From IMG/VR virus record IMGVR_UViG_3300035698_032311, positions 1 to 64,000 of that record: 64,000 nt of DNA, one strand, 5' to 3'. The translations under genes were made by a program, and so were the position numbers. The notes beneath the pieces are model-generated. The model did not search any database. It was not told the DNA's origin and was given only the letters and a program-made list of their open reading frames with translations. The stretch is from a virus. Positions 1,738-25,296 of this stretch are shown here, piece after piece (the stretch's first letter is position 1; each line of letters starts with the position of its first letter).

Positions 1738-1808
1738 TCCGAAGTAATGTAATGGTCGCATAGGAGACTTTGATCCTCCTAATCTAGGTTCGAATCCTAG
1801 CTTCGGAG
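1738..1808 (+). tRNA. tRNA-Gln (anticodon TTG)
   Basis: Manual cloverleaf: acceptor tccgaag/cttcgga, T-arm ctagg-ttcgaat-cctag, anticodon loop ctTTGat. Confidence 0.55.
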
Positions 1809-1813
1809 CATAT

Positions 1814-1888
1814 TCCAACGTGGACAAGCAGTATGTCGTCTGTCTCATAAGCAGAAAATCGTAGGTGCAATTCCTACCGTTGGAACCA
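1814..1888 (+). tRNA. tRNA-Met/Ile2-type (anticodon CAT), CCA encoded
   Basis: Acceptor tccaacg/cgttgga plus A plus CCA; anticodon arm tctgt-ctCATaa-gcaga; T-arm gtagg-tgcaatt-cctac. Confidence 0.6.
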
Positions 1889-1889
1889 T

Positions 1890-1975
1890 GGAAGATTGTC
1901 GGGGAAATGGCTATCCCACCTCTCTTGAAAAGAGGAGCTGTAAAAGGCGTGTAGGTTCGAGTCCTACATCTTCCG
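1890..1975 (+). tRNA. tRNA-Ser (anticodon TGA)
   Basis: 86 nt with long variable arm; anticodon arm cctct-ctTGAaa-agagg; T-arm gtagg-ttcgagt-cctac; acceptor ggaagat/atcttcc. Confidence 0.65.
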
Positions 1976-2003
1976 CAGCAAGTAAGTGTGTTGTCTGTTG
2001 TAC

Positions 2004-2089
2004 GGAAGAATATCCAAAATGGACAAGGAAGCGGTTTGCTAAACCGTAAAGGGTAAAAACCTTTGTAGGTTCGAGTCCTACTTCTTCCG
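2004..2089 (+). tRNA. tRNA-Ser (anticodon GCT)
   Basis: 86 nt; anticodon arm gcggt-ttGCTaa-accgt; long variable stem aaaggg/cctttg; T-arm gtagg-ttcgagt-cctac. Confidence 0.6.
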
Positions 2090-2212
2090 CCTATGTTTTT
2101 AATACCAAGTGACATACCTCTATTATTAGAGGCATTAAAGGAAAAAGGATTTATAACTAAAAAAGAATTGATTAGCTATTTAATTAGTTTCTTAATTCGT
2201 TTAATATAAATA

Positions 2213-2286
2213 AGCCAATGTAGCTCAATTTGGCAGAGCAGTTGCTTTGTAAGCATCAGGTTGGGGGTTCGATGCCCTTCATTGGC
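2213..2286 (+). tRNA. tRNA-Thr (anticodon TGT)
   Basis: Acceptor gccaatg/cattggc; D-arm gctc..gagc; anticodon loop ttTGTaa; T-loop ttcgatg. Confidence 0.5.
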
Positions 2287-2292
2287 TCATAT

Positions 2293-2365
2293 ACTACCCT
2301 GTCCTAATTGGCAAAGGAGAAAGTCTTAGACACTTTTTATCTGGGTTCGAGTCCCAGGGGTAGTA
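2293..2365 (+). tRNA. tRNA with Leu-type anticodon TAG but short (4-nt) variable loop
   Basis: Acceptor actaccc/gggtagt, D tcct..agga, anticodon arm aaagt-ctTAGac-acttt, T-arm ctggg-ttcgagt-cccag, discriminator A. Confidence 0.45.
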
Positions 2366-2371
2366 CTATAT

Positions 2372-2444
2372 GTGCCAGTAGCCCAATGGCAGAGGCAACA
2401 GATTTAAGTCCTGTTCAGTGTAGGTTCGAATCCTACTTGGCACA
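2372..2444 (+). tRNA. tRNA with Leu-type anticodon TAA but short variable loop
   Basis: Acceptor gtgccag/ttggcac; anticodon arm acaga-ttTAAgt-cctgt (one A-C closing mismatch); T-arm gtagg-ttcgaat-cctac. Confidence 0.45.
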
Positions 2445-2450
2445 CAAAAT

Positions 2451-2525
2451 GCCACTATGATGCAATTTGGTAGACATATTAGTTTCAAAAACTAAAAATT
2501 GAAGGTTCGAATCCTTCTAGTGGCA
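2451..2525 (+). tRNA. tRNA with Leu-type anticodon CAA but short variable loop
   Basis: Acceptor gccacta/tagtggc; anticodon arm ttagt-ttCAAaa-actaa; T-arm gaagg-ttcgaat-ccttc. Confidence 0.45.
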
Positions 2526-2531
2526 TATAAG

Positions 2532-2602
2532 GGCTTCATCTTCTAGTGGCAGGAAACAAGATTCTCAATCTTGTAACAAGAGTTCAATTCTCTTTGAAGC
2601 CA
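2532..2602 (+). tRNA. tRNA-Glu (anticodon CTC)
   Basis: Acceptor ggcttca/tgaagcc; anticodon arm caaga-ttCTCaa-tcttg; T-arm aagag-ttcaatt-ctctt. Confidence 0.55.
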
Positions 2603-2607
2603 CAAAT

Positions 2608-2678
2608 GACCTTATCAGCTAATGGCAGGCTAGAAGACTTTCATTCTTCCAATGTGGGTTCAACTCCCGCTAGGGTCG
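2608..2678 (+). tRNA. tRNA-Glu (anticodon TTC)
   Basis: Acceptor gacctta/tagggtc; anticodon arm gaaga-ctTTCat-tcttc; T-arm gtggg-ttcaact-cccgc. Confidence 0.55.
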
Positions 2679-2689
2679 CAAATAAAGAT

Positions 2690-2763
2690 GGGAATGTAGC
2701 TTAATAAGGCAGAGCAATTCTCTCTTAAAGAAAAGGTTAAAGGTTCGATTCCTTTCATTCCCA
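2690..2763 (+). tRNA. tRNA-Lys (anticodon CTT)
   Basis: Acceptor gggaatg/cattccc; D gctt..gagc; anticodon loop ctCTTaa; T-arm aaagg-ttcgatt-ccttt. Confidence 0.5.
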
Positions 2764-2773
2764 CTATTGAAGA

Positions 2774-2845
2774 TGGCTTATAGTTCAACGGTAGAACACT
2801 TCTCTGATAAAGAAGAAGTTATAGGTTCAATTCCTATTAAGCCAA
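2774..2845 (+). tRNA. tRNA-Ile (anticodon GAT)
   Basis: Acceptor tggctta/taagcca; D gttc..gaac; anticodon arm cttct-ctGATaa-agaag; T-arm atagg-ttcaatt-cctat. Confidence 0.6.
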
Positions 2846-2959
2846 CAATATTTATTATTAGAATATATAAATAAATGAATTGTAAGAGGTTGCCGATTAA
2901 TAAGGCAAAATAAATTTTCAAAAGAAGATTTAATTGATAACTCTATATAATTCATAAAA

Positions 2960-3031
2960 ACCCCATTAACTCAACAGACAGAGTATTAGCCTTCGAAGCT
3001 AAAAATCTGGGTGCGAATCCTAGATGGGGTA
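2960..3031 (+). tRNA. tRNA-Arg (anticodon TCG)
   Basis: Acceptor accccat/atggggt; D actc..gagt; anticodon arm ttagc-ctTCGaa-gctaa; T-arm ctggg-tgcgaat-cctag. Confidence 0.55.
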
Positions 3032-3032
3032 C

Positions 3033-3104
3033 AGGGATATAGCTTAAAAGTAAAGCTCTATTCTTATAAAATAGAAGATATGGGTGCAAGTCCTATTATC
3101 CCTA
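3033..3104 (+). tRNA. tRNA-Ile (anticodon TAT, reads ATA)
   Basis: Acceptor agggata/tatccct; anticodon arm ctatt-ctTATaa-aatag; T-arm atggg-tgcaagt-cctat. Confidence 0.55.
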
Positions 3105-3110
3105 CTATAC

Positions 3111-3182
3111 TGCAGGGTCATCTAATCGGTAGGATATGAGATTCTGACTCTCATAATTTAGGTTCGAATCCTAATCCTGCAA
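3111..3182 (+). tRNA. tRNA-Gln (anticodon CTG)
   Basis: Acceptor tgcaggg/tcctgca; D atct..ggat; anticodon arm tgaga-ttCTGac-tctca; T-arm ttagg-ttcgaat-cctaa. Confidence 0.5.
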
Positions 3183-3187
3183 CATAA

Positions 3188-3261
3188 GGGAATATAACTC
3201 AATTTGGTAGAGTACCTGTCTTTTAAACAGGAGATTCTAGGTTCGATTCCTAGTATTCCCA
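3188..3261 (+). tRNA. tRNA-Lys (anticodon TTT)
   Basis: Acceptor gggaata/tattccc; anticodon arm cctgt-ctTTTaa-acagg; T-arm ctagg-ttcgatt-cctag. Confidence 0.65.
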
Positions 3262-3264
3262 CAC

Positions 3265-3405
3265 GGAGGCAGAAGACATTGGTCTGAAGCACATTGCAAA
3301 ATCTTATCTCATTCTAGTAGCGGGTAAGTGCGTGAAGTGTATCGATGAAAAAGAGACTTGCTAGAAGTTCTTGAGTAGTTGTTGGTTCAACTCCAACTGC
3401 TTCCA
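3265..3405 (+). tRNA. aberrant 141-nt tRNA-like locus (insertion-disrupted or degenerate tRNA)
   Basis: Perfect T-arm gttgg-ttcaact-ccaac followed by tgcttcc plus A. A 7-nt 5' partner ggaggca (6 WC plus 1 GU) lies 130 nt upstream. No canonical D or anticodon arm could be folded in between. Confidence 0.3.
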
Positions 3406-3454
3406 CAAAAACATGATTATAAAACTAACAATAATAAAGTATTAAAATTCAACA

Positions 3455-3525
3455 AGACCTAGTTACCGAGTAGTCAGGTGGGAGTCTGCAAAACTCTCTA
3501 CATAGGTGCAAATCCTATCTAGGTC
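3455..3525 (+). tRNA. tRNA-Cys (anticodon GCA)
   Basis: Acceptor gacctag/ctaggtc; anticodon arm ggagt-ctGCAaa-actct; T-arm atagg-tgcaaat-cctat. Confidence 0.55.
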
Positions 3526-3526
3526 T

Positions 3527-3817
3527 CATTTAGATATGATTGTGGCAGAATAGACGATAAACCAATATACCAAACGCAATAACTATTAGGCGAAGAAGGT
3601 GGCAAGTCATCTCCAGAGTTCTTGATACGCTTAATGGGAACTGAAGTTTGGTTGATAAGCAAAAAGAACCAGAAGCGATGTTGGTCTAAAAAGTATTGCA
3701 TTATGTTCTACCTGTAGCTGGTAATAAACCAGAAGTAAAAACTGTGAGGGAAGCGGTAGAGATACGCCTCACACTGTAGGGTGGAATATCGAGAATCCCT
3801 ACCAATCATATCTAAAT
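3527..3817. other. 291-bp element bounded by a perfect 15-bp terminal inverted repeat (MITE-like insertion or structured RNA)
   Basis: atttagatatgattg at 3527-3541 is the exact reverse complement of caatcatatctaaat at 3803-3817. The element sits precisely between tRNA-Cys and tRNA-Arg. The interior has an internal hairpin gtaggg…ccctac and no convincing ORF. Confidence 0.45.
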
Positions 3818-3820
3818 AAT

Positions 3821-3893
3821 ACCCCTGTCATCCAATTGGATAGGATACTGGTCTTCTAAACCTGAAATAGTGGTTCGAGTCCACTTGGGGGTA
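3821..3893 (+). tRNA. tRNA-Arg (anticodon TCT)
   Basis: Acceptor acccctg/tgggggt (two GU); D atcc..ggat; anticodon loop ctTCTaa; T-arm agtgg-ttcgagt-ccact. Confidence 0.5.
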
Positions 3894-3899
3894 CATTTT

Positions 3900-3971
3900 G
3901 CCAACGTAGCTCAATGGTAGAGCATTCGCTTGAAAAGCGAGGGGTAATAGGTCCAATTCCTATCGGTGGCA
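3900..3971 (+). tRNA. tRNA-Phe (anticodon GAA)
   Basis: Acceptor gccaacg/cggtggc; D gctc..gagc; anticodon arm ttcgc-ttGAAaa-gcgag; T-arm atagg-tccaatt-cctat. Confidence 0.55.
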
Positions 3972-4009
3972 CTGACAAAAATATTTAATTAGTATAAATA
4001 AACGATAAT

Positions 4010-4097
4010 GGCAAGGTGTGCCGAATGGTGAAGGCACTAGTCTGTAAAACTAGCACCCTAGTGGTAAACATTACAGGTTCGATTCCTGTCCTTGTCA
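4010..4097 (+). tRNA. tRNA-Tyr (anticodon GTA), class II
   Basis: 88 nt; acceptor ggcaagg/ccttgtc; D tgcc..ggca; anticodon arm ctagt-ctGTAaa-actag; long variable arm; T-arm acagg-ttcgatt-cctgt. Confidence 0.6.
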
Positions 4098-4102
4098 CAT
4101 AT

Positions 4103-4174
4103 TTCCGTGTAGTTTAACGGCAAAACAGCTGTGTTACATACAGAAGAGTGTAGGTTCAACTCCTATCACGGAAA
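4103..4174 (+). tRNA. tRNA-Val (anticodon TAC)
   Basis: Acceptor ttccgtg/cacggaa; D gttt..aaac; anticodon loop gtTACat; T-arm gtagg-ttcaact-cctat. Confidence 0.5.
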
Positions 4175-4193
4175 CAGTTGAATTAATTTTTAT

Positions 4194-4264
4194 TCCTCCG
4201 TAGTATAATGGTAATACACTTCTCTGTTAAAGAAGAATTAGCGGTTCGAATCCACTCGGAGGAG
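4194..4264 (+). tRNA. tRNA-Asn (anticodon GTT)
   Basis: Acceptor tcctccg/cggagga; D gtat..atac; anticodon arm cttct-ctGTTaa-agaag; T-loop ttcgaat. Confidence 0.6.
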
Positions 4265-4391
4265 CTAAATAGTATATCTTTCATTTTAATAGTAGTACCT
4301 ATGTACAAAAACGTCTAAATATGATATAATATACTTATAAAGGTCAAAAATATCAATAAAGGTCAATTTAATATAAAAATAAAATAAGACA

Positions 4392-4748
4392 ATGACTAAC
4401 AATACAACAAAAGAAGAAAAATGGGAAGAAGTTAAACCTGGAATTTGGGATTATGTAAATGAGCCAATCTTAATTGGAAATCTCATTGAAATAAAAACTA
4501 ACGTAGGTCCAAATTCATCAAAATTATATACTATTCAGAAAGATGATGACACTTTACTTTCAGTTTGGGGCACTACAATATTAGATGCAAGACTTCAATT
4601 TGTTACTGTTGGAGAGAGAGTTAAAGTTGAATTTACAGGAAAGGGTACACCTAAACCAGGTCGAAAGCCAACATTACTTTTTACAGTATATCATTCTTTA
4701 GCAAAACACGAAGAAAATTTATTAGAAGAAGACGTTCAACTTGATTAG
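4392..4748 (+). CDS. hypothetical protein
   Basis: 118-aa ORF immediately after the tRNA array; no recognisable motif. Confidence 0.35.
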   Translation: MTNNTTKEEKWEEVKPGIWDYVNEPILIGNLIEIKTNVGPNSSKLYTIQKDDDTLLSVWGTTILDARLQFVTVGERVKVEFTGKGTPKPGRKPTLLFTVYHSLAKHEENLLEEDVQLD

Positions 4749-16649: not shown

Positions 16650-19600
16650 TTAAGATTTTTCGACTTTTAATAATCGGATTTCTAATTCCTTAATTGCCCC
16701 AATCATAATTGAAACTAAAGCTGATAATTCTGCACCGTCTTCAGCCTTAATCTTTTTTTTCGTCTTTTTATCTATTTTATATGGTATATCATTTTTATCT
16801 CTTGGTAACGGTTTGCCGTTTCGATCAGTTGCAATTGAATAAACAGCTTTTGGCATTGTTCTATAATCAAATCTTGGAACACCATAACTTGTCTTAAAAG
16901 AAGGATGTTTTTTAATATTTTTAAGAGCATCAACATCAGAGACCTTTCTGCCATCTTGAAGTTCAACACCATCATCAAATACCCCTAAACATCCTCTGTC
17001 TTGTAAGTTCTTATAATTTAAATCATTGAAATAATTACTAGAACTACCCAAATCCCAAATTCCTGCACTTTCTGGCATAATATCACCGATATGATCAAAT
17101 CCACAAGCATAATGAGCCCCATAAGATTTTTGGTTTATATTAAGATAGTAAGAAGATGAACCTGCAATAAGTTTAGCTCCTGCAGTGATTGTTAAGCCGC
17201 TTGATCCTGGAGTAATACTTATGCCACCTGATGAGCTACCTGATGTTTCAAATATCATTGAAGTATAAGGTCCATAAATTTTATGAGTTCCATCTGTAAG
17301 ATAAACTGATAACGGAGTTATATTAATTCCATCTGAAGTTGAACTGTGATGAGCATTGGGAATACCTGTTCGAGTACCATGCATTGCATCGTTTATTGTT
17401 CCTGAATGATAAGTAGTAATAGCTCCACCATCATGAGCTGAAATATCAACCCCATCAACAGTTCCAGTAATAGCAAGGTTACCTGAAATTTTATTGCCTG
17501 CATCTGAACAATTTATATTTAAATGATTACCACTTAATACTCCAGCTGTACTAACTGAACTTGGAGTAATATTAAGACCATTTGAAACTGAACTATGATG
17601 CTGACTTGCTGTAACACTTGTTAAGTCTGAATGACTTTTAGTTCCTAACTCTGATAAAGAGCAAGTACTCAAATCACTACAGGTAAAAACACCCCCACTT
17701 GGCCAACTTGTCTTACAATCTCCACTTAAACATATTTCAGTTGCATAAAGATAACGCCAACGATTACTATTTGTACCTAAATCATAATCACTTCCATATG
17801 GTATAAAATCAGCATCACATTCTACGGTAGTTGCTAACAATCGTAAAGTTGCACCAGATATTAACATTACTCCTGAAAAACCCCACTCAATATATGCCTC
17901 TGCTACATTAGAAGAATTAACCCAATATATAGTTGATGACTCTCCAAATGAACTGTTACACATTTCAATTCTATTATTATTACTTGCAGCAGAACTAACA
18001 ACCGATCCAGTAATAGTACCTCCAGTAATAGTTGAAGCAGCAATAGTACCCTTAAAATAAGCATCTCCAGCACTAGAAATATAAAAAGTAGTCGCACTAG
18101 ATTTTCTTCCATAAATACCATTAGAATCAAATCTAATACCGTTAGCCGGAAGAGAAATACTAGTTAAATTAGCTTCAAGAAAACCTTTAGTAATTATAGA
18201 GCTAGCGTCAAGTCCAGTATAGGCCCTGCCGGCTCCTGTTTGTTGATTAGCAGTAAGTCTTTTATATGTACTTCCATCAGCTAAAATATCATCTGCTGTT
18301 GAACCTGTACCATCGGCTTGTTTTATTCCACTATCATATTTAAGTGCATTTCCTGCTGTTACTGTAATATTTCCTGATACAACAACATCACCAGAAGTAT
18401 TAATTGAAAATGTTGTAACACTTGCTTTTCTTCCATAAATACCTGTTCCATGAATAAGAATTCCATCGGCAGGTAAACTAGCAGTAGATATTTGGCTAAC
18501 ATCAATTGCAGCTAATTGATTACCTGTTATAGTATTTCCATAGATTTCATTAGCAGTAATGACATTTGCGGCTATTTGTTCTGCTAAAACTGTCCTAACA
18601 GCAATATTTGCTCCATCAATAACCATTCCTAATCCAGGTTTAACATTAACAACTGAAGCTCCTTTAGGTGCAATAGCGGGTATAGCATAACAAAGCCCAA
18701 TTTTATTCGGACCCATTGCATCAGAAAATGATGTTGATGTTTGTAGTGAATTAGTTGAAGCATCAGCATCAAAATAAATTACAGTTGTTGCTCCCATATT
18801 ACCAGTATCATCTTTAGCAATACTATATATAAGAGGACTACTCGCACTAGATGTTGCTGCTTTTATTGAACCTGCTTCCCAACCAACTGTATTGTGATCA
18901 ATTGAAGAGAAAGCTAAATCAGTAACCCAATCTTTGCTTCCTAATGTAAGATTATCTGGTGAAATCGATTGAAGACTTCGCTGTAATTGGTCAATAGCAG
19001 ATTGAACAACATCTTCTTGTTCTTGGGTTAAATCACTTAAATTAGCATCAAATTCTGTTAGTTCTATTAATGCCTCATCAACTTTATAACTAATTCTGAC
19101 AATAGACATATTAGTGCCAAAAAGAGTCTGAGCTTCATTAATATCCATAACCTTACAAGTATCACCGGGCTTAATTGATGCTAAATCATAATCACTTCCT
19201 ACTACTATTGTAATTCTTCTTTTGACATCTTTATTTTCAGCAATTTTTGGATTTCCTAATAAATTAGCATATGCTGTTGTGTGAACATCACTATCAATCT
19301 TTAAATCAGCAATAGTTCCATAATCAGTAATACTAGTTGCGTCAGAATATGTACTATCAACATAATTTAGACATACACTCCCAACCCCTGACCAGATAAA
19401 GAAACGATTAATGACTGTTTCAATATTTTTATGAGTTTTTAATTCCTTAATATGTTTTCGTAAAATGAACTTATGAGTAGCTGATGTAGATTTTTCCTTT
19501 AAATATAGTTTTCCAGAAGCATCAATAAACCAATACCAATTAGTTGGCAAAAACTCTTCAACTTTTCGAATTGCTTTACGATGCTTAATATCTTTGAATA

Positions 19601-20114
19601 GATAGGTTAAATTCTCACTTGTATCACCAACATTAGCATAATCATTACTAATCAATAAGTCTGTTTCACCATTCGTTCTATAGTTATCAATAATATTCTT
19701 CATTATTTGACCTAATTCAGTATCAGATTCTTGAATTGCAAAGCCAGTCAATACGGTTGTAGAAGATCTCCAGTAATCATTGTTAAGTTTTGAAATATTC
19801 GGTAAAAATGTAATTTCGACTCCTTCATCATTTTCTTTAATATATGGTCGAAAAGCAGATAGATATCCTGTATATATTAAAGTATCAGTATTGTCTGAAT
19901 CATTTAAATAGATTTTCAGACGATAATTAAGATCAAGATCAGTACCTTCTCCATAATCATCTACTTTTCTATTAAGATTTAATACAACTTCACTAAGTCC
20001 TCCATTTACTGAATATTCAAATGTAGGTGTATTCAAAACATCGTCAAGAACTTTGACGAAGACACCGCTTCGATTATAGATTTTAAATGTGAGTTTTCTT
20101 TTTATATCTGACAT
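16650..20114 (-). CDS. tail fibre / tail-associated lysin-like protein with C-terminal intramolecular chaperone
   Basis: 1154 aa; N-terminus resembles prophage-tail/Tal-type proteins; long Gly/Ser/Thr-rich β-repeats; C-terminal …SDVDALKNIK…AELSALVSIMIGAIKELEIRLLKVE resembles S74-type auto-cleaving chaperone. Confidence 0.5.
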   Translation of the reverse strand: MSDIKRKLTFKIYNRSGVFVKVLDDVLNTPTFEYSVNGGLSEVVLNLNRKVDDYGEGTDLDLNYRLKIYLNDSDNTDTLIYTGYLSAFRPYIKENDEGVEITFLPNISKLNNDYWRSSTTVLTGFAIQESDTELGQIMKNIIDNYRTNGETDLLISNDYANVGDTSENLTYLFKDIKHRKAIRKVEEFLPTNWYWFIDASGKLYLKEKSTSATHKFILRKHIKELKTHKNIETVINRFFIWSGVGSVCLNYVDSTYSDATSITDYGTIADLKIDSDVHTTAYANLLGNPKIAENKDVKRRITIVVGSDYDLASIKPGDTCKVMDINEAQTLFGTNMSIVRISYKVDEALIELTEFDANLSDLTQEQEDVVQSAIDQLQRSLQSISPDNLTLGSKDWVTDLAFSSIDHNTVGWEAGSIKAATSSASSPLIYSIAKDDTGNMGATTVIYFDADASTNSLQTSTSFSDAMGPNKIGLCYAIPAIAPKGASVVNVKPGLGMVIDGANIAVRTVLAEQIAANVITANEIYGNTITGNQLAAIDVSQISTASLPADGILIHGTGIYGRKASVTTFSINTSGDVVVSGNITVTAGNALKYDSGIKQADGTGSTADDILADGSTYKRLTANQQTGAGRAYTGLDASSIITKGFLEANLTSISLPANGIRFDSNGIYGRKSSATTFYISSAGDAYFKGTIAASTITGGTITGSVVSSAASNNNRIEMCNSSFGESSTIYWVNSSNVAEAYIEWGFSGVMLISGATLRLLATTVECDADFIPYGSDYDLGTNSNRWRYLYATEICLSGDCKTSWPSGGVFTCSDLSTCSLSELGTKSHSDLTSVTASQHHSSVSNGLNITPSSVSTAGVLSGNHLNINCSDAGNKISGNLAITGTVDGVDISAHDGGAITTYHSGTINDAMHGTRTGIPNAHHSSTSDGINITPLSVYLTDGTHKIYGPYTSMIFETSGSSSGGISITPGSSGLTITAGAKLIAGSSSYYLNINQKSYGAHYACGFDHIGDIMPESAGIWDLGSSSNYFNDLNYKNLQDRGCLGVFDDGVELQDGRKVSDVDALKNIKKHPSFKTSYGVPRFDYRTMPKAVYSIATDRNGKPLPRDKNDIPYKIDKKTKKKIKAEDGAELSALVSIMIGAIKELEIRLLKVEKS

Positions 20115-20115
20115 A

Positions 20116-20304
20116 TTATTTTATACGCTTCCATGCTCGTTCATGAATGTAATATTCAATAGTTGAAACTATCGCAGCAACAATAGTTATTTTTAATGAT
20201 ATAGCAAATTTTTGAGTATAGAAAAAAATAATCAATAATGAAGTTAATACTGCAATAATTCTCCAACTTATAGTTTTTAAAATTGATTTCTTTTTTGAAT
20301 CCAT
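20116..20304 (-). CDS. small membrane protein
   Basis: 62 aa with two hydrophobic helices. Confidence 0.3.
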   Translation of the reverse strand: MDSKKKSILKTISWRIIAVLTSLLIIFFYTQKFAISLKITIVAAIVSTIEYYIHERAWKRIK

Positions 20305-20517
20305 ATTATTATAAAATATCTCATCTCAAAAATAAGCAGTGGGTTCAAGTAAAGAGATATTCACTTTTTCACTACTTCTCCCTTTTATGGTTGAGATGAG
20401 ATATCTTATAACAAAATAATATTTTGCTGTAAAAATCGTAGAGTGTGATTGTGTAATTTTGTTGAACCCTTCTCTAAAAACTGGAGTTAAAATCTTTATT
20501 TAATTATTTAATTAGAT

Positions 20518-20796
20518 TTATAGTTGAACACTATGACCTTGAGATTGTGTTATCCCATCACTTTGTTTAAAAGCATAAAACTGGAAACCATACAAAATCT
20601 CTTGAATCTGATTTTTTATTTGGTCTTTAACGGCTTTGTTTTGTATTTCATTAACTATTGCACCATCAATAATAGTTAGGATTTTACCAGATAAATGTTT
20701 TATATTATTTTCTACATATTCATAAGGTAAATATCCTTCGTATTTTGGTATAGATGATTTTTCTCCTACAACTGACTTAACTTTATCTTTTGACAT
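20518..20796 (-). CDS. hypothetical protein
   Basis: 92-aa ORF flanked by a 10-bp inverted repeat ctggagttaa/ttaactccag (20472-20481, 20809-20818). Confidence 0.3.
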   Translation of the reverse strand: MSKDKVKSVVGEKSSIPKYEGYLPYEYVENNIKHLSGKILTIIDGAIVNEIQNKAVKDQIKNQIQEILYGFQFYAFKQSDGITQSQGHSVQL

Positions 20797-20920
20797 AACA
20801 TTATAACTAAACTTGACTTAACTCCAGATTTTAAAGAACTGTTATTAAAAAGTATAGAGATGTTTAAGCAACGATTTGTTGTCAAAGCCCTTGAACTATG
20901 TTATAGAAAACATCTCTTTA

Positions 20921-21142
20921 TTAGGTTGGGCTTTTTTTATCATCTTCTCCGGCAGTAAGATACAGCGGTTTTCCACAATTGGAGCATTTCTTTTTCAGCC
21001 CTGAGGACTTATAAGTTATCCTACATAGCCGACAATATGCTTCGTAGAATATCAGATACACCAAGGGATAACCACATTTAGGACACTTTGCTTTAATCTT
21101 TTCTCCACAATCAGGACAATAGAAATAAGCTAATCTTCCCAT
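20921..21142 (-). CDS. four-CxxC zinc-ribbon protein (paralog A)
   Basis: 73 aa CPDCG…CPKCG…CRLC…CSNCG; same architecture as 21724-21945. Confidence 0.4.
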   Translation of the reverse strand: MGRLAYFYCPDCGEKIKAKCPKCGYPLVYLIFYEAYCRLCRITYKSSGLKKKCSNCGKPLYLTAGEDDKKSPT

Positions 21143-21369
21143 TATGAATACAACCCGTTCTTTCCGTTTATAATCTTCTTCTTTTTAGACACAAATTCTC
21201 CAACTTCAATCTTTACAAACAGTTTTTTGGCATCAATTGTTTCCCAGCCTTTCTCTTTCCACCTGTAAAGTATCAAGTTAATGGCTTTCATTATGGATAA
21301 ACCTATGTCTTCTGCTGTTTCAAGTTCCTGTAGTTTCTTTTCCAAGATTTCTTCTTTGCTTTCGGTCAT
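21142..21369 (-). CDS. hypothetical protein
   Basis: 75-aa ORF. Confidence 0.3.
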   Translation of the reverse strand: MTESKEEILEKKLQELETAEDIGLSIMKAINLILYRWKEKGWETIDAKKLFVKIEVGEFVSKKKKIINGKNGLYS

Positions 21370-21677
21370 CTGTAAATCTCTCTCTTGTGATTGTTTTGGC
21401 TTCTGAGCAGTTTATACCATTCGTCAAACCTCTCTATAGCTGTCTTATGCCTATATCCAGGTTGCATCATTCCTTCTAAATGATTAAAAGTCAGTGTAGG
21501 GACTAATTCTATTCCATTTTCTACTTTCCTTTTGTATTCTTCATAGATTTTCCTGTAATTGTCGTGTATCTCTTTGTATTCTTTGGCTATTTTTTGGTCT
21601 ATCTCTTTATGATATTTCTCAAAGCTTTCAGCGAATTTAATCATTCTGTCATACATCTCTTTAATTGTTTCAGCCAT
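21366..21677 (-). CDS. hypothetical protein
   Basis: 103-aa ORF. Confidence 0.3.
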   Translation of the reverse strand: MAETIKEMYDRMIKFAESFEKYHKEIDQKIAKEYKEIHDNYRKIYEEYKRKVENGIELVPTLTFNHLEGMMQPGYRHKTAIERFDEWYKLLRSQNNHKREIYR

Positions 21678-21723
21678 TATAGATTCAAACTGTTCATCGG
21701 TTAAGATAAACTCTTCTGGTTCT

Positions 21724-21945
21724 TCATTTATCAGTATTGTCGCCTCCTTTAAATATCAATCCATACTTTCCACACTTGGAACAAATATTTTTTCCAATCT
21801 GATTCATAGAAAAGAACTGCTTGCAATTCCTACAAAGCGCTATAAATGAATCGACATAATCCAATTGTCTTTTACATAAAGGACATCGTGCCATTATTCT
21901 TTCATACTCACAGTATCTATTAGAACATACTTTCCATGCTTTCAT
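21724..21945 (-). CDS. four-CxxC zinc-ribbon protein (paralog B)
   Basis: 73 aa CSNRYC…CPLC…CRNC…CSKCG. Confidence 0.4.
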   Translation of the reverse strand: MKAWKVCSNRYCEYERIMARCPLCKRQLDYVDSFIALCRNCKQFFSMNQIGKNICSKCGKYGLIFKGGDNTDK

Positions 21946-22163
21946 TTACTTCACCTATTAAATTGTTAAAGGAAGTAGTGGATAGACGCTATACGAATCT
22001 CGTATTTTTTTATCTTTGTCCAATCTAATTCCCTCAAAGCTGGATATAAGGGTTTATTGAGATTAAGGAACTCAAAACCTTTATCCCTCTAAACATTATT
22101 CTGTCCACCCAGCTTTCAAGGAACTAAATTCATTGGGGAACGAAGCAAATTACTTCGCCCCCC

Positions 22164-23171
22164 TCATTTTGAGGAAGATTTATTTAAGTCCAATTTTATA
22201 ACGTGGCGAAAAGATACTCCGTAAACAGGATGAATCCCTAAAAGCAATTGTTCAGGAACTGAAGCCACTCCCAGTTGTTCTTCTGCATATTCGTCATCTG
22301 TAATCCAAGAACCATTTACGAAAATAGTTAAATCGTTCCATCTCATACCTGCATTAGCCGAATGAAAATGCGAGAATAAAAAGTTATCCAGTTTAATTCT
22401 ATTCCTGTAAGCTCCTTGCCATCTCTGACATTGGCGGGTCATACCATAATGAGGCAAATTGTAATATCGCCTAATCATATCTCCGTGAGTCGCTAAAAAT
22501 CCGTGTCCTAAAATGGTAAACATAGCTTTCCAGTCTTTCATTTCTACATGCCATTTAAGTCGGGGCTGATTTCTTGTGGTTGCTTCTAATGATTTATAAA
22601 ATACTAGGTCCCAGTTTGTACTTCTTGAAGAAACCCATTTTGCTTGATGCTGTCTTCCGTGATTTCCTTTGATGGCGTGGATTTCCACTTCCTTGAAATT
22701 CTTTAAGCAGAAAAGAATAAACTTCGTAAACTCGGGAACACCTACAGAGAATATTTGCTCCATTATAGGAATAGCCATAAAATCTACTGCTTGAGCCGGA
22801 TAGACTGCCTCACAATCTACCATATCTCCGTTAAAAACTATCACTAATTTTTTTATCTGTCGTTGACTTCTAAGAGCAGAAATAATGCTCATCATTGATT
22901 TTTCAAGAAATCTCAATCTTTTAACAAAGACTTTAGGGTTATAAGAAATAGTCTGCTTTCCTATATGTGTATCCGAAATTAAAATCAATGCTACTTCAGA
23001 GCTGTGTTTTGTTTTGGGTATGAAAAGTGTAGGCGCTTCTATCGCCGGCATTATAGCAATAGAGTCTTTGATAGATTTTACAATCCTATCAGCTATATCC
23101 AGTTTCTTATCTTGAGCTAATATCCTTCTTTTCAAAAGGCGAATCTTCGCTTCAAGTTTTTTATCACTCAA
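22164..23171 (-). CDS. calcineurin-like metallophosphoesterase (TTG start)
   Basis: SDTHIG, NGDMVD, KGNHG, THGD, SHFHS motifs in canonical order. Confidence 0.6.
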   Translation of the reverse strand: MSDKKLEAKIRLLKRRILAQDKKLDIADRIVKSIKDSIAIMPAIEAPTLFIPKTKHSSEVALILISDTHIGKQTISYNPKVFVKRLRFLEKSMMSIISALRSQRQIKKLVIVFNGDMVDCEAVYPAQAVDFMAIPIMEQIFSVGVPEFTKFILFCLKNFKEVEIHAIKGNHGRQHQAKWVSSRSTNWDLVFYKSLEATTRNQPRLKWHVEMKDWKAMFTILGHGFLATHGDMIRRYYNLPHYGMTRQCQRWQGAYRNRIKLDNFLFSHFHSANAGMRWNDLTIFVNGSWITDDEYAEEQLGVASVPEQLLLGIHPVYGVSFRHVIKLDLNKSSSK

Positions 23172-23216
23172 CTAAATCACCTTCCTCCTGCGTTCTATTT
23201 TTCATAGAATCACCTC
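23164..23216 (-). promoter_or_regulatory. conserved leader: GAGGTG RBS plus 14-codon uORF (MKNRTQEEGDLVE) overlapping the main start; palindrome ttctat-N5-atagaa
   Basis: Near-identical element upstream of the paralogous gene at 24363-24424. Confidence 0.45.
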
Positions 23217-23331
23217 AGTTTTTAAAGAGCTATAATTCGCTCAAGATTAAAGACAACTTTCCTTTAATCTTCAAAGAACTATTTAAATCCATCTTCTATA
23301 AAATAATCCTTTAACCAAGAAACATCATTCG

Positions 23332-24366
23332 CTACTTCGCCTCCCTCATTTTTTTAGGAAGAGAGATATAATCATTTTTAACAGGCACATAATATGTCTT
23401 ATTGTAAATTTCTATAGACTCAAGCCCTTTGTTTGACTGGTGTATTGTTAGAATCATACCCCCTATTGCTGGAAAATATCCTTTGGTCTTTAGATAAGTT
23501 GTTTGAGACTGAAAGCATTTAAGCTGAAATCCTTCTACATTTCTATATGCTTCCAAGTAAGCTGGTTGATGATAGTGCCCTAATAACAATATGTGCGGTT
23601 TTTGTTCTGGTGCAAACTGTTCAATTATCTTCTGCATTTTATAGCTTCTCGCATAAGCAATTCCACCAGAGCCGTGCATCAGATAAATTACAATTTTTCC
23701 AAAGGTTATATAAGCTCCAGTATATCCCAGATATTCTATATCGCTTCTTTCGTCTGCAAAATGTTGTAAAATGTCAAAGCCTGATTCCTTGTAAAAAGAG
23801 TAATCGTGGCTTCCACCGATAACATATGTTTTTATGCCCTCAATCTTAGGATAGTTGTTAACAATGTAATCCAGTTGGGTTTCAACTCCAAACATAAACA
23901 TTTCATAGAGTTGCCCCCTATAAAGTTTTCCATTGCCTTCCACCACATCGCCTCCGTGTAAAATAGCATCTACTTTAAAATGTTTGCAAAGCCTGTAAAA
24001 GTCCAGTAAGTGCTGGTGTTGTTGATGTTTAGACCCATAATGAGTATCTGATATTATACCCAACTTATAAGTCTTGACTCTTTTGTCATATTTATATTCT
24101 GCATCTTGTTTTAATTTCTGCTTATAGGCTATATAACCCCTCTTTGATACTTCTTCAAGCAGTTGCCTGTCTTTTACTTTTTCAATATTATATTGAGATT
24201 TAAGATTACTTTGGGGTGTATTTCTTTTAAGACTTATTCGATTGGCTTTAGTTTTGATGGACTCTTTGGTCCTGTTAGGTATAGCTTTTTGAAGCTCTTC
24301 CCAAGTGCCAGACTTCCATAGTTTTTTTAAAGAGTCAGCTTCTTGTTTAGTCCAATATTTAGTCAT
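23332..24366 (-). CDS. calcineurin-like metallophosphoesterase (paralog) with N-terminal SANT/HTH-like region
   Basis: SDTHYG, GGDVVEG, GGSHD, MHGSGG, GHYHQ motifs. Confidence 0.6.
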   Translation of the reverse strand: MTKYWTKQEADSLKKLWKSGTWEELQKAIPNRTKESIKTKANRISLKRNTPQSNLKSQYNIEKVKDRQLLEEVSKRGYIAYKQKLKQDAEYKYDKRVKTYKLGIISDTHYGSKHQQHQHLLDFYRLCKHFKVDAILHGGDVVEGNGKLYRGQLYEMFMFGVETQLDYIVNNYPKIEGIKTYVIGGSHDYSFYKESGFDILQHFADERSDIEYLGYTGAYITFGKIVIYLMHGSGGIAYARSYKMQKIIEQFAPEQKPHILLLGHYHQPAYLEAYRNVEGFQLKCFQSQTTYLKTKGYFPAIGGMILTIHQSNKGLESIEIYNKTYYVPVKNDYISLPKKMREAK

Positions 24367-24424
24367 AGAAATATCACCTTATTTATATCTTCCCATTGTG
24401 TTCTATTTTTCATAGAACCACCTC
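24363..24424 (-). promoter_or_regulatory. conserved leader: GAGGTG RBS plus 17-codon uORF (MKNRTQWEDINKVIFL) ending in ATGA overlap with main ATG; same palindrome
   Basis: Second copy of the element at 23164-23216. Confidence 0.45.
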
Positions 24425-24525
24425 GTAAGTTTTAAAAAAACCATATTTCGTTCTTTGAACTAAGTTCTTTTAAACCCAGAGGCAAAAAACAAAAGTTTAT
24501 TTAAAAATACCCTAGATATTTAATA

Positions 24526-25296
24526 TTACAAGTAAGTTGGGTAATATGAAACTAATGTATCTACCTGATGTGCAGTACTAGTGAAAGTGAGTGTTATACT
24601 ATTTGTACTTGGCTGAAATTCAGGAAAAACACCCGAAAAATCTGAATTTGTTGAACCAATTTTGACTGTTTTTGCATCACAATCTATTATGAGAACATTT
24701 CCTGCATTAAATGACTGAGATACTGATATTGAATTTGTCGTTCCATCTGCTGTTTGATTTTGAAATTGAATTTTAGTTAAAGTAGTTTCTGAATCAACTG
24801 TGAACTGAAGAGTTGGTGAAGGGTTTGCAGAGCCTGTCATAACTATCGAATTTGTATAAGTAGAAGCAGTAACATTATTATATGAAGAAGATACAGAAGC
24901 TGTTGCTTTTCCAAATGGTTGGCAGACAAAAGTAATTCTATATGGACACGAAGATATATGATAAAAATCGTCAGGCATTTCAATTTCTCGAACAGTCGCT
25001 ACATATCTTATAGTTGATCCGCCGTATGCAATATCTAAATTCTTACTTTTTGGTTTAAGAAATTTTTTCATTTCATCAATCTTAGTTCGCAAAGCAGCAT
25101 TTGTGCTGCAAACAAGCATTCCCTCAATCTCAATTGTTTTTTGGGTATGATATATATTTACAATTTTAAAACCATCTGATCTTGCAATATTCTCAAGATC
25201 AATTGTCCGTTCAGGCAAGTTTTTATAATGAATAATTTTTGTTTTCCAATTCGTGTCTTGCAATAAATATGAATTAAATGTTACATTATAAGCCAT
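24526..25296 (-). CDS. distal tail protein (Dit-like)
   Basis: 256 aa, β-rich, immediately downstream of the tape measure as in siphovirus tail modules. Confidence 0.4.
   Translation of the reverse strand: MAYNVTFNSYLLQDTNWKTKIIHYKNLPERTIDLENIARSDGFKIVNIYHTQKTIEIEGMLVCSTNAALRTKIDEMKKFLKPKSKNLDIAYGGSTIRYVATVREIEMPDDFYHISSCPYRITFVCQPFGKATASVSSSYNNVTASTYTNSIVMTGSANPSPTLQFTVDSETTLTKIQFQNQTADGTTNSISVSQSFNAGNVLIIDCDAKTVKIGSTNSDFSGVFPEFQPSTNSITLTFTSTAHQVDTLVSYYPTYL

Follow-up and report, generated by a model that had tools for sequence, protein, structure and literature searches.

In T4-type phages, promoter-early stem-loops (PeSLs) are composite motifs that recur between the genes of the hyperplastic region, where they flank accessory ORFs (Arbiol et al. 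2010, PMC2839356; Comeau et al. 2014, PMC4122927). Each PeSL combines a strong sigma-70-like early promoter with a stem-loop terminator, often of the form GGGG…CCCC. Recombination between PeSLs inserts, deletes and swaps genes, with crossovers between the -10 box, the SD and the ATG and with the involvement of mini-circles (PMC2839356; PMC4122927). In Cluster K mycobacteriophages, SAS is a conserved SD-containing sequence located 3-7 bp 5' of the ATG, before unrelated genes; in ESAS an imperfect inverted repeat with a variable spacer lies upstream, and dozens of copies are found per Cluster K genome (Pope et al. 2011, PMC3203893). We analysed a window of 64 kb (the whole stretch of 64,000 nucleotides) of an uncultured siphovirus, in which two metallophosphoesterase (MPE) genes are preceded by closely similar short leaders. 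By analogy, these leaders fit cassette-boundary modules such as the PeSLs or ESAS: each is probably the 3' end of a module repeated within an accessory island rather than a dedicated sensory leader. The leaders, MPE genes, hairpins, module copies, flanks and tail genes described below are all on the minus strand.

MPE-A (23332..24366) encodes 344 aa, with an N-terminal SANT/Myb-like region, matched weakly (17.4 bits for a Pfam cut-off of 24.4 bits), and a Metallophos/Metallophos_2 domain. MPE-B (22164..23171, 335 aa) starts with TTG, a start supported by an in-frame TAG directly before it and by an N-terminal coiled-coil that is kept in homologs. The two genes had been called paralogs; if so, they are very distant ones (~20% identity, BLASTP E 0.07). 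Both have distant matches only among GenBank proteins, annotated as 'exonuclease' or 'hypothetical', and a nucleotide search for close GenBank phages gave no match.

Upstream of both genes we read the motif GAGGTG-N5-ATG AAA AAT AGA ACR CAR, so that the description given by the sequence-only reading, a homologous MKNRTQ leader with a GAGGTG and a palindrome before each gene, is confirmed. In leader A, the GAGGTG (SD1-A, 24419..24424) is located 5 nt 5' of the ATG of uORF-A (24363..24413; ATG at 24413, TGA at 24365-24363), which has 16 codons and encodes MKNRTQWEDINKVIFL*. Its TGA overlaps the MPE-A ATG at 24366 (ATGA). In leader B, SD1-B (GAGGTG, 23211..23216) serves uORF-B (23164..23205; ATG at 23205, TGA at 23166-23164), with 13 codons encoding MKNRTQEEGDLVE* and a stop located 3 nt within the MPE-B ORF, whose TTG is at 23171 (TTGAGTGA). 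The uORFs end on or next to the main start, as had been noted. Each main ORF also has its own 7-nt SD at good spacing: SD2-A (AAGGTGAT, 24373..24380) lies 6 nt 5' of the MPE-A ATG and SD2-B (GGAGGAAGGTGAT, 23176..23188) 4 nt 5' of the MPE-B TTG. An assembly artefact is excluded, since L007 and L008, two more independent assemblies, contain the same sequence.

The overlapping signals recall translational coupling as it occurs at ATGA operon junctions, in the MS2 coat/lysis/replicase genes and in trpB-trpA, where an upstream stop overlaps or abuts a downstream start. Ribosomes loaded at SD1 would terminate and reinitiate at the main start, and the uORF would set or co-ordinate the output of both MPE genes, helping especially the weak TTG of MPE-B; the MPE-A SD, for its part, is able to pair with upstream RNA. 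SD1 is a perfect 6-nt SD with 5-nt spacing. An 11-nt indel revealed by the alignment shifts the uORF frame between the leaders, and both uORFs nevertheless finish at the main start; codons 1-7 differ at two positions, both synonymous (ACA/ACG and CAA/CAG). These synonymous-only differences and retained end points may be a sign that a translated, coupled uORF is under weak selection. However, the strong SDs of the main genes themselves go against the idea that they depend on the uORF, and differ from the situation at coupled junctions, as does an upstream ORF reduced to a stub of 13-16 codons with no conserved product. The peptide, presented as conserved, is identical over 6 residues only and diverges after 6-8 residues, beyond which the indel changes the frame. 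As a random ORF at 31% GC is expected to extend over ~13 codons (an estimate made by hand from the base composition), the length and end point of the uORFs are unremarkable. Three further points detailed below also count against coupling: a hairpin partly buries SD1 and its AUG, the core of the leaders shows no excess conservation, and relatives start the gene itself at the same SD-ATG. We consider a functional coupled uORF to be rather unlikely, bearing in mind that the uORF-bearing version of the leader is represented by n=2 copies within one phage, too few for its function to be judged by comparison. Two other origins of the uORF were rejected. The first, a tandem duplication of the MPE-A initiation region giving rise to uORF-A (common GGTG..TTCTATGA), was not significant (211/2000 shuffles). 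The second, homology of the uORF with an in-frame N-terminal extension of the 69% homolog of L005, failed because the 5' regions could not be aligned (309/1000).

The preferred reading, that of a module end, draws first on the extent of the similarity between the two cassettes. When the leaders were aligned they proved homologous (25 nt, 96%, E 2e-6), and each is the sole significant cross-match of the other in the 64 kb. The similarity is far wider than the leader: it covers ~140 nt on the 5' side (local score 84 vs 29±5 for shuffles, 0/1000), stopping at the main SD (AAGGTGAT), and 20 nt on the 3' side. A 28-nt core is conserved at 26/28 positions for 74% in the other intergenic sequence, which is no excess over that background (P≈0.24). 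A duplicated region of 74% identity is expected to hold such a stretch, and the core thus needs no selection on a peptide or a switch, contrary to what its conservation had suggested. The 3' flank motif of copy A (AAAATGAGGGAGGCGAAGTA, 23333..23352, 20 nt) is 95% identical to that of copy B, which is followed by a GC-rich hairpin (22135..22170 altogether; motif 22151-22170, hairpin 22135-22163), and the homology of these flanks was never equalled in 1000 shuffles (0/1000). The hairpin 3' of MPE-B has 13 bp (GGGGGG…CCCC, -21.3 kcal/mol, z -4.0); it has no U tract, and the scan for terminators did not report it. It is homologous to the hairpin found after the MPE-A homolog of L005 (1/1000 shuffles), where the counterpart has a T run. 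Copy A keeps only the 5' arm and does not fold (z -0.16). MPE-A has lost its stop, and its last 11 codons run into this hairpin remnant. Two different MPE genes are therefore placed between the same 5' and 3' flanks, and the homology is interrupted at the SD on one side and the hairpin arm on the other.

The palindrome of the leaders, the 17-mer TTCTATGAAAAATAGAA (TTCTAT-N5-ATAGAA), occurs exactly twice in the window, and looser matches (3 mismatches) are no commoner than expected by chance. A possible third, partial copy (21532-21548, 3 mismatches), which falls within an ORF but not in frame, is consistent with chance. The sequence-only reading had placed the uORF start in the loop of a 6-bp palindrome. 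The palindrome is indeed there, with only the G of the ATG in the loop and its A and T in the stem. As RNA the hairpin is longer: 9 bp interrupted by a single bulge, with the last 3 nt of SD1 included in the pairing. Hairpin A (24398..24421, GUG.UUCUAU[GAAAA]AUAGAACAC) includes the palindrome at 24401-24417 and the uORF-A start codon, and hairpin B (23190..23213, GUG.UUCUAU[GAAAA]AUAGAACGC) the palindrome at 23193-23209 and the uORF-B start codon. They fold at -7.7 kcal/mol (z -4.5) and -7.3 kcal/mol (z -4.7), respectively, and none of 200 shuffles was as stable. Real initiation regions of this phage average -1.1±1.8 kcal/mol, nearly all of them less stable than the small hairpin.

A hairpin covering an SD and a start codon could be an RNA operator, bound by a phage or host translational repressor or nuclease that would co-regulate both MPE genes, and its two copies differ only at the bulge and by a U-A to U-G change, with the pairing kept. 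These differences nevertheless weigh little, the copies being related by duplication, and 31-nt genome windows folding at -7.3 kcal/mol or below amount to 2.3% of the total (1.6% at -7.7 or below). Moreover the hairpin controls the stub and not the main SD, it is absent from L019, L021 and L004, and no further copy was found in the window, IMG/VR, the JGI metagenomes or the GTDB genomes apart from chance gene starts. An RNA operator is in our opinion quite improbable. Even more so is a DNA operator shared by the two cassettes, as had been proposed for a common regulator, in which a dimeric protein, for example through the SANT/Myb-like MPE-A N-terminus, would bind the palindrome and repress both genes. 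A perfect 6-bp inverted repeat is present 5' of both genes and MPE-A does have a Myb-like match, albeit under the Pfam threshold. However, with 39 perfect 6-N5-6 palindromes in the window the repeat is unremarkable, duplication accounts for both copies, and the site is positioned at a ribosome-binding site and start rather than at a promoter, with no sigma-70-like or Bacteroidetes-type promoter adjoining. We give this possibility very little credit.

We also compared the leaders with attenuators. A ribosome-stalling peptide of the erm/cat or trp type would sense a small molecule or a charged tRNA; like the ermC and cat leaders, the uORFs are short, have their own ribosome-binding site and lie 5' of a gene, and MKNR contains a +x+ pattern, a putative macrolide-arrest motif. 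Transcription attenuation of the trp type has no room here: the uORF stop and the main start overlap, so there is no space between leader and gene, and the scan for terminators on the minus strand found none. For an erm-type mechanism the leader-coding RNA should sequester the main SD in a conserved way, which it does not: the SD of MPE-A pairs with sequence 5' of the uORF, that of MPE-B is unpaired in the centroid structure, and the two have no common alternative structure. Besides, the peptides diverge and change frame, no leader peptide is conserved at the homologous loci fetched, and no Rfam leader or riboswitch was matched at a meaningful score. A stalling leader is thus scarcely credible, in either form.

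According to the preferred reading, the leader is the downstream part of a larger unit. On the mRNA this module consists, from 5' to 3', of a long imperfect hairpin, an A/U-rich tract (…AGCUCWUUUAAAAC…), an SD and an ATG. Copy B has the long hairpin at 23232..23282 (covariance-model score 78.9 bits), with a conserved base (AUAGUUC.UU.GAA / UU.AG.GAAUUAU) and a variable yet paired apex, and its 3' part at 23211..23231 (AGCTCTTTAAAAACT, then SD1-B at 23216-23211). Copy A, whose upstream part was delimited by alignment to copy B (24430..24500), is degenerate: the conserved hairpin base is partly deleted, and the sequence folds as a shifted long hairpin (-21.6 kcal/mol, z -2.5) whose 3' arm takes in SD1-A. 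The hairpin of copy C (22022..22130; -42.9 kcal/mol, z -4.2; 119 bits) sits 5' of a gene for a 73-aa zinc-ribbon protein (21724-21945) with an AGGTGA SD and without uORF. A possible fourth, diverged hairpin with 33-nt arms (20303..20417; 20.9 bits, E 0.07) has five non-standard pairs and lies directly 5' of a 62-aa gene (20116-20304). The window therefore contains three clear copies and one weak copy of the module, all in the island between the Dit and Tal genes.

The structure of the long hairpin, an imperfect duplex of at least 20 bp (21 modelled pairs) in intergenic mRNA, is kept among copies. In the alignment 95% of the cells are paired and 7/21 pairs show double changes; 0/500 shuffles were as good and slid controls gave 33-54% of paired cells. 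Invariant G·U pairs assign the hairpin to the sense RNA. The best Rfam matches (18-22 bits, E ~1 or more) were all under the gathering thresholds. Phage T7 uses long imperfect hairpins with fixed internal mismatches as RNase III processing sites, placed between genes of a long operon, 5' of the next ribosome-binding site. The conserved hairpin predicted here likewise has fixed internal mismatches and occupies the same kind of position, just 5' of the ribosome-binding site of the next cistron; the likeness is one of predicted structure, with no sequence similarity. A consensus scan of the coding strand found no sigma-70-like promoter in the three intergenic regions, and no Bacteroidetes-type promoter motif was seen near the modules. 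As no promoter was identified, a regulatory nature of the module is suggested by its position and structure only.

All copies belong to an accessory island of 4.4 kb (20115..24525) made of MPE-A, MPE-B and six small ORFs, between the gene of the distal tail protein Dit (24526-25296, Pfam) and a Tal-like tail-tip gene (16650-20114, 1154 aa). In seven relatives (L022, L023 and L026-L030) the Tal homolog directly follows Dit, indicating that the Dit-Tal junction is an insertion hot spot, and in L018 one small gene separates them. Initiation signals also distinguish the island. In the window, 67/76 genes have no SD, and SDs of at least 6 nt are restricted to five starts, those of both uORFs, of both MPE genes and of the gene 3' of module copy C, so that each leader consists of two tandem SD-start units of the island type. 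Similarly, the five AGGTGA-type SDs are all inside the island, and GAGGTGRTTCT-ATG occurs twice. Bacteroidetes-type promoters are not enriched in the window and offer no explanation for the SD-less genome. Morons are reportedly autonomous genes inserted with a promoter and a terminator between phage core genes (Juhala/Hendrix). Like them, the island adds genes between adjacent tail genes, with terminator-like hairpins, their own initiation signals and an SD usage that differs from the remaining genome. Unlike in the island, where the flanks are repeated and common to different cargo genes, conserved flanks are not known to define morons, and no promoter was identified here.

The module was then followed in related phages. 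L019 and L021, whose Dit is 71-72% identical, carry an island that begins with the same module right after Dit, and in L004 the covariance model finds the module (31 bits, E 3e-4, all pairs standard) directly before an MPE-A homolog of 74% identity whose context is unrelated. In these three phages the SD-ATG of the module is the start of the main gene itself, without uORF; the uORF is not a feature common to relatives. SD1-A is in the position homologous to the main-gene SD of L021, where GGAGGTGGTTTTATG starts a B-like MPE gene. Neither module nor leader is found around the MPE-B homologs of L009, L013 and L031, and the leader is absent 5' of all homologs fetched. Wider searches gave no additional copy. 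The motif has only its two copies in the 64-kb window, the leader has 0 matches in IMG/VR, and the module pattern TTGAGYGAATTATAGYTCWTTWAAAAC has 0 matches in IMG/VR and 0 in GTDB genomes. Two matches to GGTGNTTCTATGNNNNATAGAACNC in the JGI metagenome contigs, a collection that does not include this phage, are due to chance, one being in a GC-rich bacterial contig and the other inside an unrelated sequence. Two GTDB matches to the leader, in Bacilli MAGs of 23% GC, are ordinary starts of FtsW/RodA-like genes (MKNRNIE…), again by chance. No ancestral gene starting with MKNRTQ was found.

Compared with PeSLs, the module is likewise repeated between the accessory ORFs of a variable region and includes a stem-loop; homology between the A and B cassettes stops at an SD on one side and a GC hairpin on the other, and some relatives have the island while others lack it. 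It differs from PeSLs in that no sigma-70-like promoter was found in it and its main hairpin is a long AU-rich RNA with G·U pairs, not a terminator; the host and the type of phage are also different (here a siphovirus tail module), and recombination is suggested indirectly, by the shared flanks around different genes. The module resembles SAS in having an SD core a few bases 5' of an ATG before unrelated genes, though in too few copies for a consensus, and shares with ESAS an imperfect inverted repeat with a variable spacer, here the long hairpin with its conserved base and variable apex. Both may act on translation initiation. However, the SAS consensus GGGATAGGAGCCC is unrelated to GAGGTGRTTCT, this genome has 3-4 modules and 2 leaders for dozens of ESAS copies, and the real start follows ESAS whereas the module start is here stranded as a uORF.

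We infer the following course of events. The SD-ATG of the module would originally have started the cargo gene, as it does in relatives. In this phage the module would have been joined to MPE genes having their own SD and start codon, which would have stranded its ATG and given rise to the uORFs: the stranded ATG opens an ORF of 13 or 16 codons that would reach the main start by chance length. The uORFs thus resemble vestigial start codons and not a sensing switch. Module, stub and second SD would then have been duplicated, or have served as homology arms, leaving very different MPE genes between identical types of flanks, with the GC-rich hairpin presumably marking the 3' end of the cassette. 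Ribosomes loaded at SD1 may translate the stub and finish at the main start, adding some termination-reinitiation to direct initiation at SD2, a route that the small hairpin over SD1 and its AUG may dampen. As to the long hairpin, it would most likely be an RNA-level processing or stability element insulating the cargo cistrons in the late tail operon. A more ambitious proposal joins the SD-start unit with the long and the GC hairpins into a mobile PeSL-like system of an uncultured siphovirus lineage. It would carry SD-dependent nuclease and phosphoesterase genes into the Dit-Tal junction of a nearly SD-less genome, the stranded uORF and its hairpin being co-opted as a common translational throttle for two MPE enzymes needed together, by way of coupling, a protein-bound operator or both; we regard this as an unlikely, speculative extension.

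An apparent "conserved leader peptide" can therefore arise without selection on the peptide, when a module bearing a start codon is fused to genes that already possess one and is then duplicated, which calls for caution when hunting for uORFs in phage genomes. Two by-products of the analysis concern the island itself: cargo genes at the Dit-Tal hot spot are marked by an intergenic RNA hairpin whose conserved structure has the support of covariation, and SD-type initiation regions are confined to the island in a phage that is SD-less elsewhere. Should the flanks truly mediate cassette exchange, PeSL-like shuffling would extend beyond the T4-type myoviruses.

The window covers 64 kb of a phage genome; its GC content is 31% and the majority of its genes lie on the minus strand. 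The gene of the distal tail protein Dit (24526-25296, minus; Pfam SPP1_Dit) is followed by two metallophosphoesterase genes, MPE-A (23332-24366, minus; 344 aa, Metallophos and Metallophos_2 matches) and MPE-B (22164-23171, minus; 335 aa, TTG start, Metallophos match), whose proteins can hardly be aligned (about 20% identity, E 0.07). Upstream of both genes the sequence is alike, with GAGGTG, 5 nt and then ATG AAA AAT AGA ACR CAR opening a short upstream reading frame (uORF). uORF-A (24413-24363, minus) encodes MKNRTQWEDINKVIFL* and its stop overlaps the ATG of MPE-A (ATGA); uORF-B (23205-23164, minus) encodes MKNRTQEEGDLVE* and its stop lies three bases inside the TTG-started MPE-B frame (TTGAGTGA). 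The 17-mer TTCTATGAAAAATAGAA is present in exactly 2 copies in the window, the only significant cross-match of each leader in the 64 kb is the other leader, and L007 and L008, two further assemblies of this phage, contain identical leaders. The uORF leader noticed before both MPE genes in the sequence-only reading, read on the minus strand, was thus confirmed.

Judged from the alignment, the similarity between the two flanks is wider than first described and does not have the uORF as its centre. The whole intergenic regions 5' of MPE-A and MPE-B align over about 140 columns (local score 84 versus 29±5 for shuffled sequences, 0/1000), from TTTAAATA… across the Shine-Dalgarno (SD)/uORF core up to the SD of the main gene (AAGGTGAT), where homology ends. 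The 28-nt core is identical at 26 of its 28 positions and the alignment elsewhere is 74% identical, an excess that is not significant since such a stretch is expected somewhere with P≈0.24. An 11-nt indel 3' of the core sets uORF-A and uORF-B in different registers, so that their peptides have only MKNRTQ in common. At their 3' ends, both genes also carry AAAATGAGGGRGGCGAAGTA (20 nt, 95% identical).

The leaders had been proposed to form a shared regulatory switch, such as a stalling leader or an operator. Transcription attenuation is excluded by the layout, which leaves no room for a terminator, and a scan of the leader strand found none. Erm-type translational attenuation requires the leader-coding RNA to mask the main SD. 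In leader A the pairing partner of the main SD lies upstream of the uORF, and in the centroid structure of leader B this SD is unpaired; no structure is common to A and B. The leader peptide is conserved for six residues only and is absent from all the relatives fetched, and an Rfam search of the leaders returned no match of note. A DNA operator at the palindrome finds no support: no promoter could be found nearby, perfect 6-N5-6 palindromes are frequent (39 in the window) and MPE-A has a Myb-like match that does not reach the Pfam threshold.

As RNA, the palindrome is predicted to form a 9-bp bulged hairpin (-7.7 and -7.3 kcal/mol, z about -4.5) pairing the three 3'-most bases of the SD and the AU in the uORF start codon, in which the two A/B differences are structure-neutral. 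However, about 2% of all 31-nt windows of the genome fold equally well and the two copies are related by duplication; a hairpin operator is an improbable alternative. Both uORFs end at the main start and the two nucleotide differences within codons 1-7 are synonymous, which would fit a mild functional coupling by termination at the uORF and reinitiation at the main gene, perhaps of consequence for MPE-B with its TTG start. Coupling is an unlikely alternative too, and for coupling and operator alike two copies in one phage remain below significance.

Dit is directly followed by a homolog of the tail-tip (Tal-like) protein in seven related phages (L022, L023, L026-L030), and one small gene separates them in another (L018). 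In the window, a 4.4 kb accessory island (20115-24525, minus) comprising MPE-A, MPE-B and six small ORFs is inserted between Dit and the Tal-like gene (16650-20114, minus; 1154 aa). Two of its proteins (21724-21945 and 20921-21142, both minus; 73 aa) have four CxxC pairs each with similar spacing, are double zinc-ribbon-like and may be paralogs; PHROG searches with both gave no informative match. Elsewhere in the window, an array of 22 tRNA genes with 15 amino-acid specificities (1738-4265, plus) fills the ORF-free gap 2115-4392.

The closest Dit relatives, L019 and L021 (71-72% identity), also carry an insertion, in which an MPE-like gene comes after an initial intergenic region of about 150 nt. 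MPE-A has a SANT/Myb-like N-terminal domain that is 43% identical in L019 (1597-1917); in L019 and in P0140 this domain is joined to B-like MPE bodies and so behaves as an N-terminal module shuffled on its own. Where MPE-B has SDTHIG, the L021 protein (957-1475) reads SDSQIG, which may reflect the loss of a metal-binding His.

The intergenic region of L019 and L021 is homologous to that upstream of MPE-B, and the three share one layout: ATAGTTCTTTGAA, a paired variable apex, TTGAGYGAATTATAGYTCWTTTAAAAC, an A-rich tract, an SD and an ATG. A further copy of this module (copy C, 22022-22130, minus) lies downstream of MPE-B in front of a 73-aa zinc-ribbon gene, and the copy 5' of MPE-A is degenerate. 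Pairing between the two conserved blocks, together with the apex, gives a long hairpin. Over four sequences and 21 modelled pairs, 95% of positions were paired, 7 pairs had changed on both sides and none of 500 shuffles did as well; slid controls reached 33-54%. Invariant G·U pairs place the structure only on the sense strand, i.e. in the mRNA. Outside its training set, a covariance model of the module detected a diverged copy in L004, with all pairs standard (31 bits, E 3e-4); the phage context there is unrelated, and the copy lies upstream of an MPE-A homolog of 74% identity. Another island hairpin (20303-20417, minus), with a 49-nt loop and 33-nt arms that are 85% complementary, immediately precedes the 62-aa ORF in front of the Tal-like gene; it overlaps a weak match (20286-20412, 20.9 bits) and may be a diverged fourth copy. 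In the rest of the window and the other loci scanned, the model found no module. RNase III processing sites are located between T7 genes, and the long hairpin would resemble these.

In L021, GGAGGTGGTTTTATG aligns with CGAGGTGGTTCTATG of leader A and is the start of the main gene, and in L004 the MPE gene comes directly after the SD of the module; the SD and ATG of the uORF thus correspond to the native initiation site of the module. Each leader of the window contains a second SD (AAGGTGAT) and start belonging to the MPE gene, and MPE homologs elsewhere have SDs of the same kind (GGAGGTGATAAAAAGTG in L006, AAAGGTGAGGAATTG in L005). In L006 the MPE-A homolog lies upstream of endolysin genes (Peptidase_C1/PG_binding, CHAP), hence in a lysis region and not a tail module; in L004 (1377-1544) and L006 (1864-2112) the MPE-A homolog is preceded by a hairpin and by a small protein, predicted to be a membrane protein, with a FIDFIK… motif. 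In two uncultured Bacilli MAGs of 23-24% GC (L024 7074-7095, minus; L025 2643-2664, plus), an FtsW/RodA-like gene (MKNRNIE…) likewise has GGTGATTCTATGAAAAATAGAA as its SD and start. These were rejected as further leader copies, being chance matches, and indicate that the motif is an ordinary low-GC initiation region.

Among the 76 predicted genes of the window, 67 lack an SD and have A/T-rich upstream regions. SDs of at least 6 nt were found only in the island, before the two uORFs, MPE-A, MPE-B and the gene following module copy C (21724-21945). SD-type initiation regions are therefore a signature of the island, with two in tandem per leader. This suggests either a host initiating largely without SD or cargo acquired from SD-using phages; Bacteroidetes-type promoters were not enriched in the window.

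The simplest reading of the uORF origin is that a module was fused to a gene already owning its SD and start, leaving the ATG of the module stranded; a random frame at 31% GC would run for about 13 codons, as estimated from base composition, and so reach the main start. The leader would afterwards have been duplicated, or have served as a homology arm, placing two unrelated MPE bodies within the same flanks, with breakpoints at the second SD on the 5' side and at a hairpin arm on the 3' side. Downstream of MPE-B, the 3' motif makes up the 5' arm of a GC hairpin of 13 bp (-21.3 kcal/mol), which recurs (1/1000 shuffles) in L005 3' of an MPE-A homolog of 69% identity. At MPE-A this 5' arm is all that is left and the gene continues through it, with a C-terminal extension of 11 codons (23332-23364, minus; ISLPKKMREAK*) where homologs end in …DY*; the stop of the ancestor and the 3' arm were apparently lost. 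Altogether, the leader feature is real; it is probably a cassette-boundary module that was duplicated and whose start codon is stranded.

The closest analogues are known from two phage groups. In T4-type phages, the PeSL cassettes are repeated promoter and stem-loop motifs on either side of ORFans in hyperplastic regions, where crossovers of recombination map between the -10 box, SD and ATG (PMC2839356). In Cluster K mycobacteriophages, the SAS/ESAS comprise a conserved sequence with an SD, a few bases 5' of the ATG, and upstream of it an imperfect inverted repeat with variable spacer (PMC3203893). Architecture and genomic behaviour seem alike in both cases; no promoter of the PeSL kind was found in the module, and its sequence is unrelated to SAS. 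By analogy, it would work like both while belonging to neither family. The uORF itself is ordinary; what is modestly interesting is the covarying intergenic hairpin and the restriction of SDs to the island.
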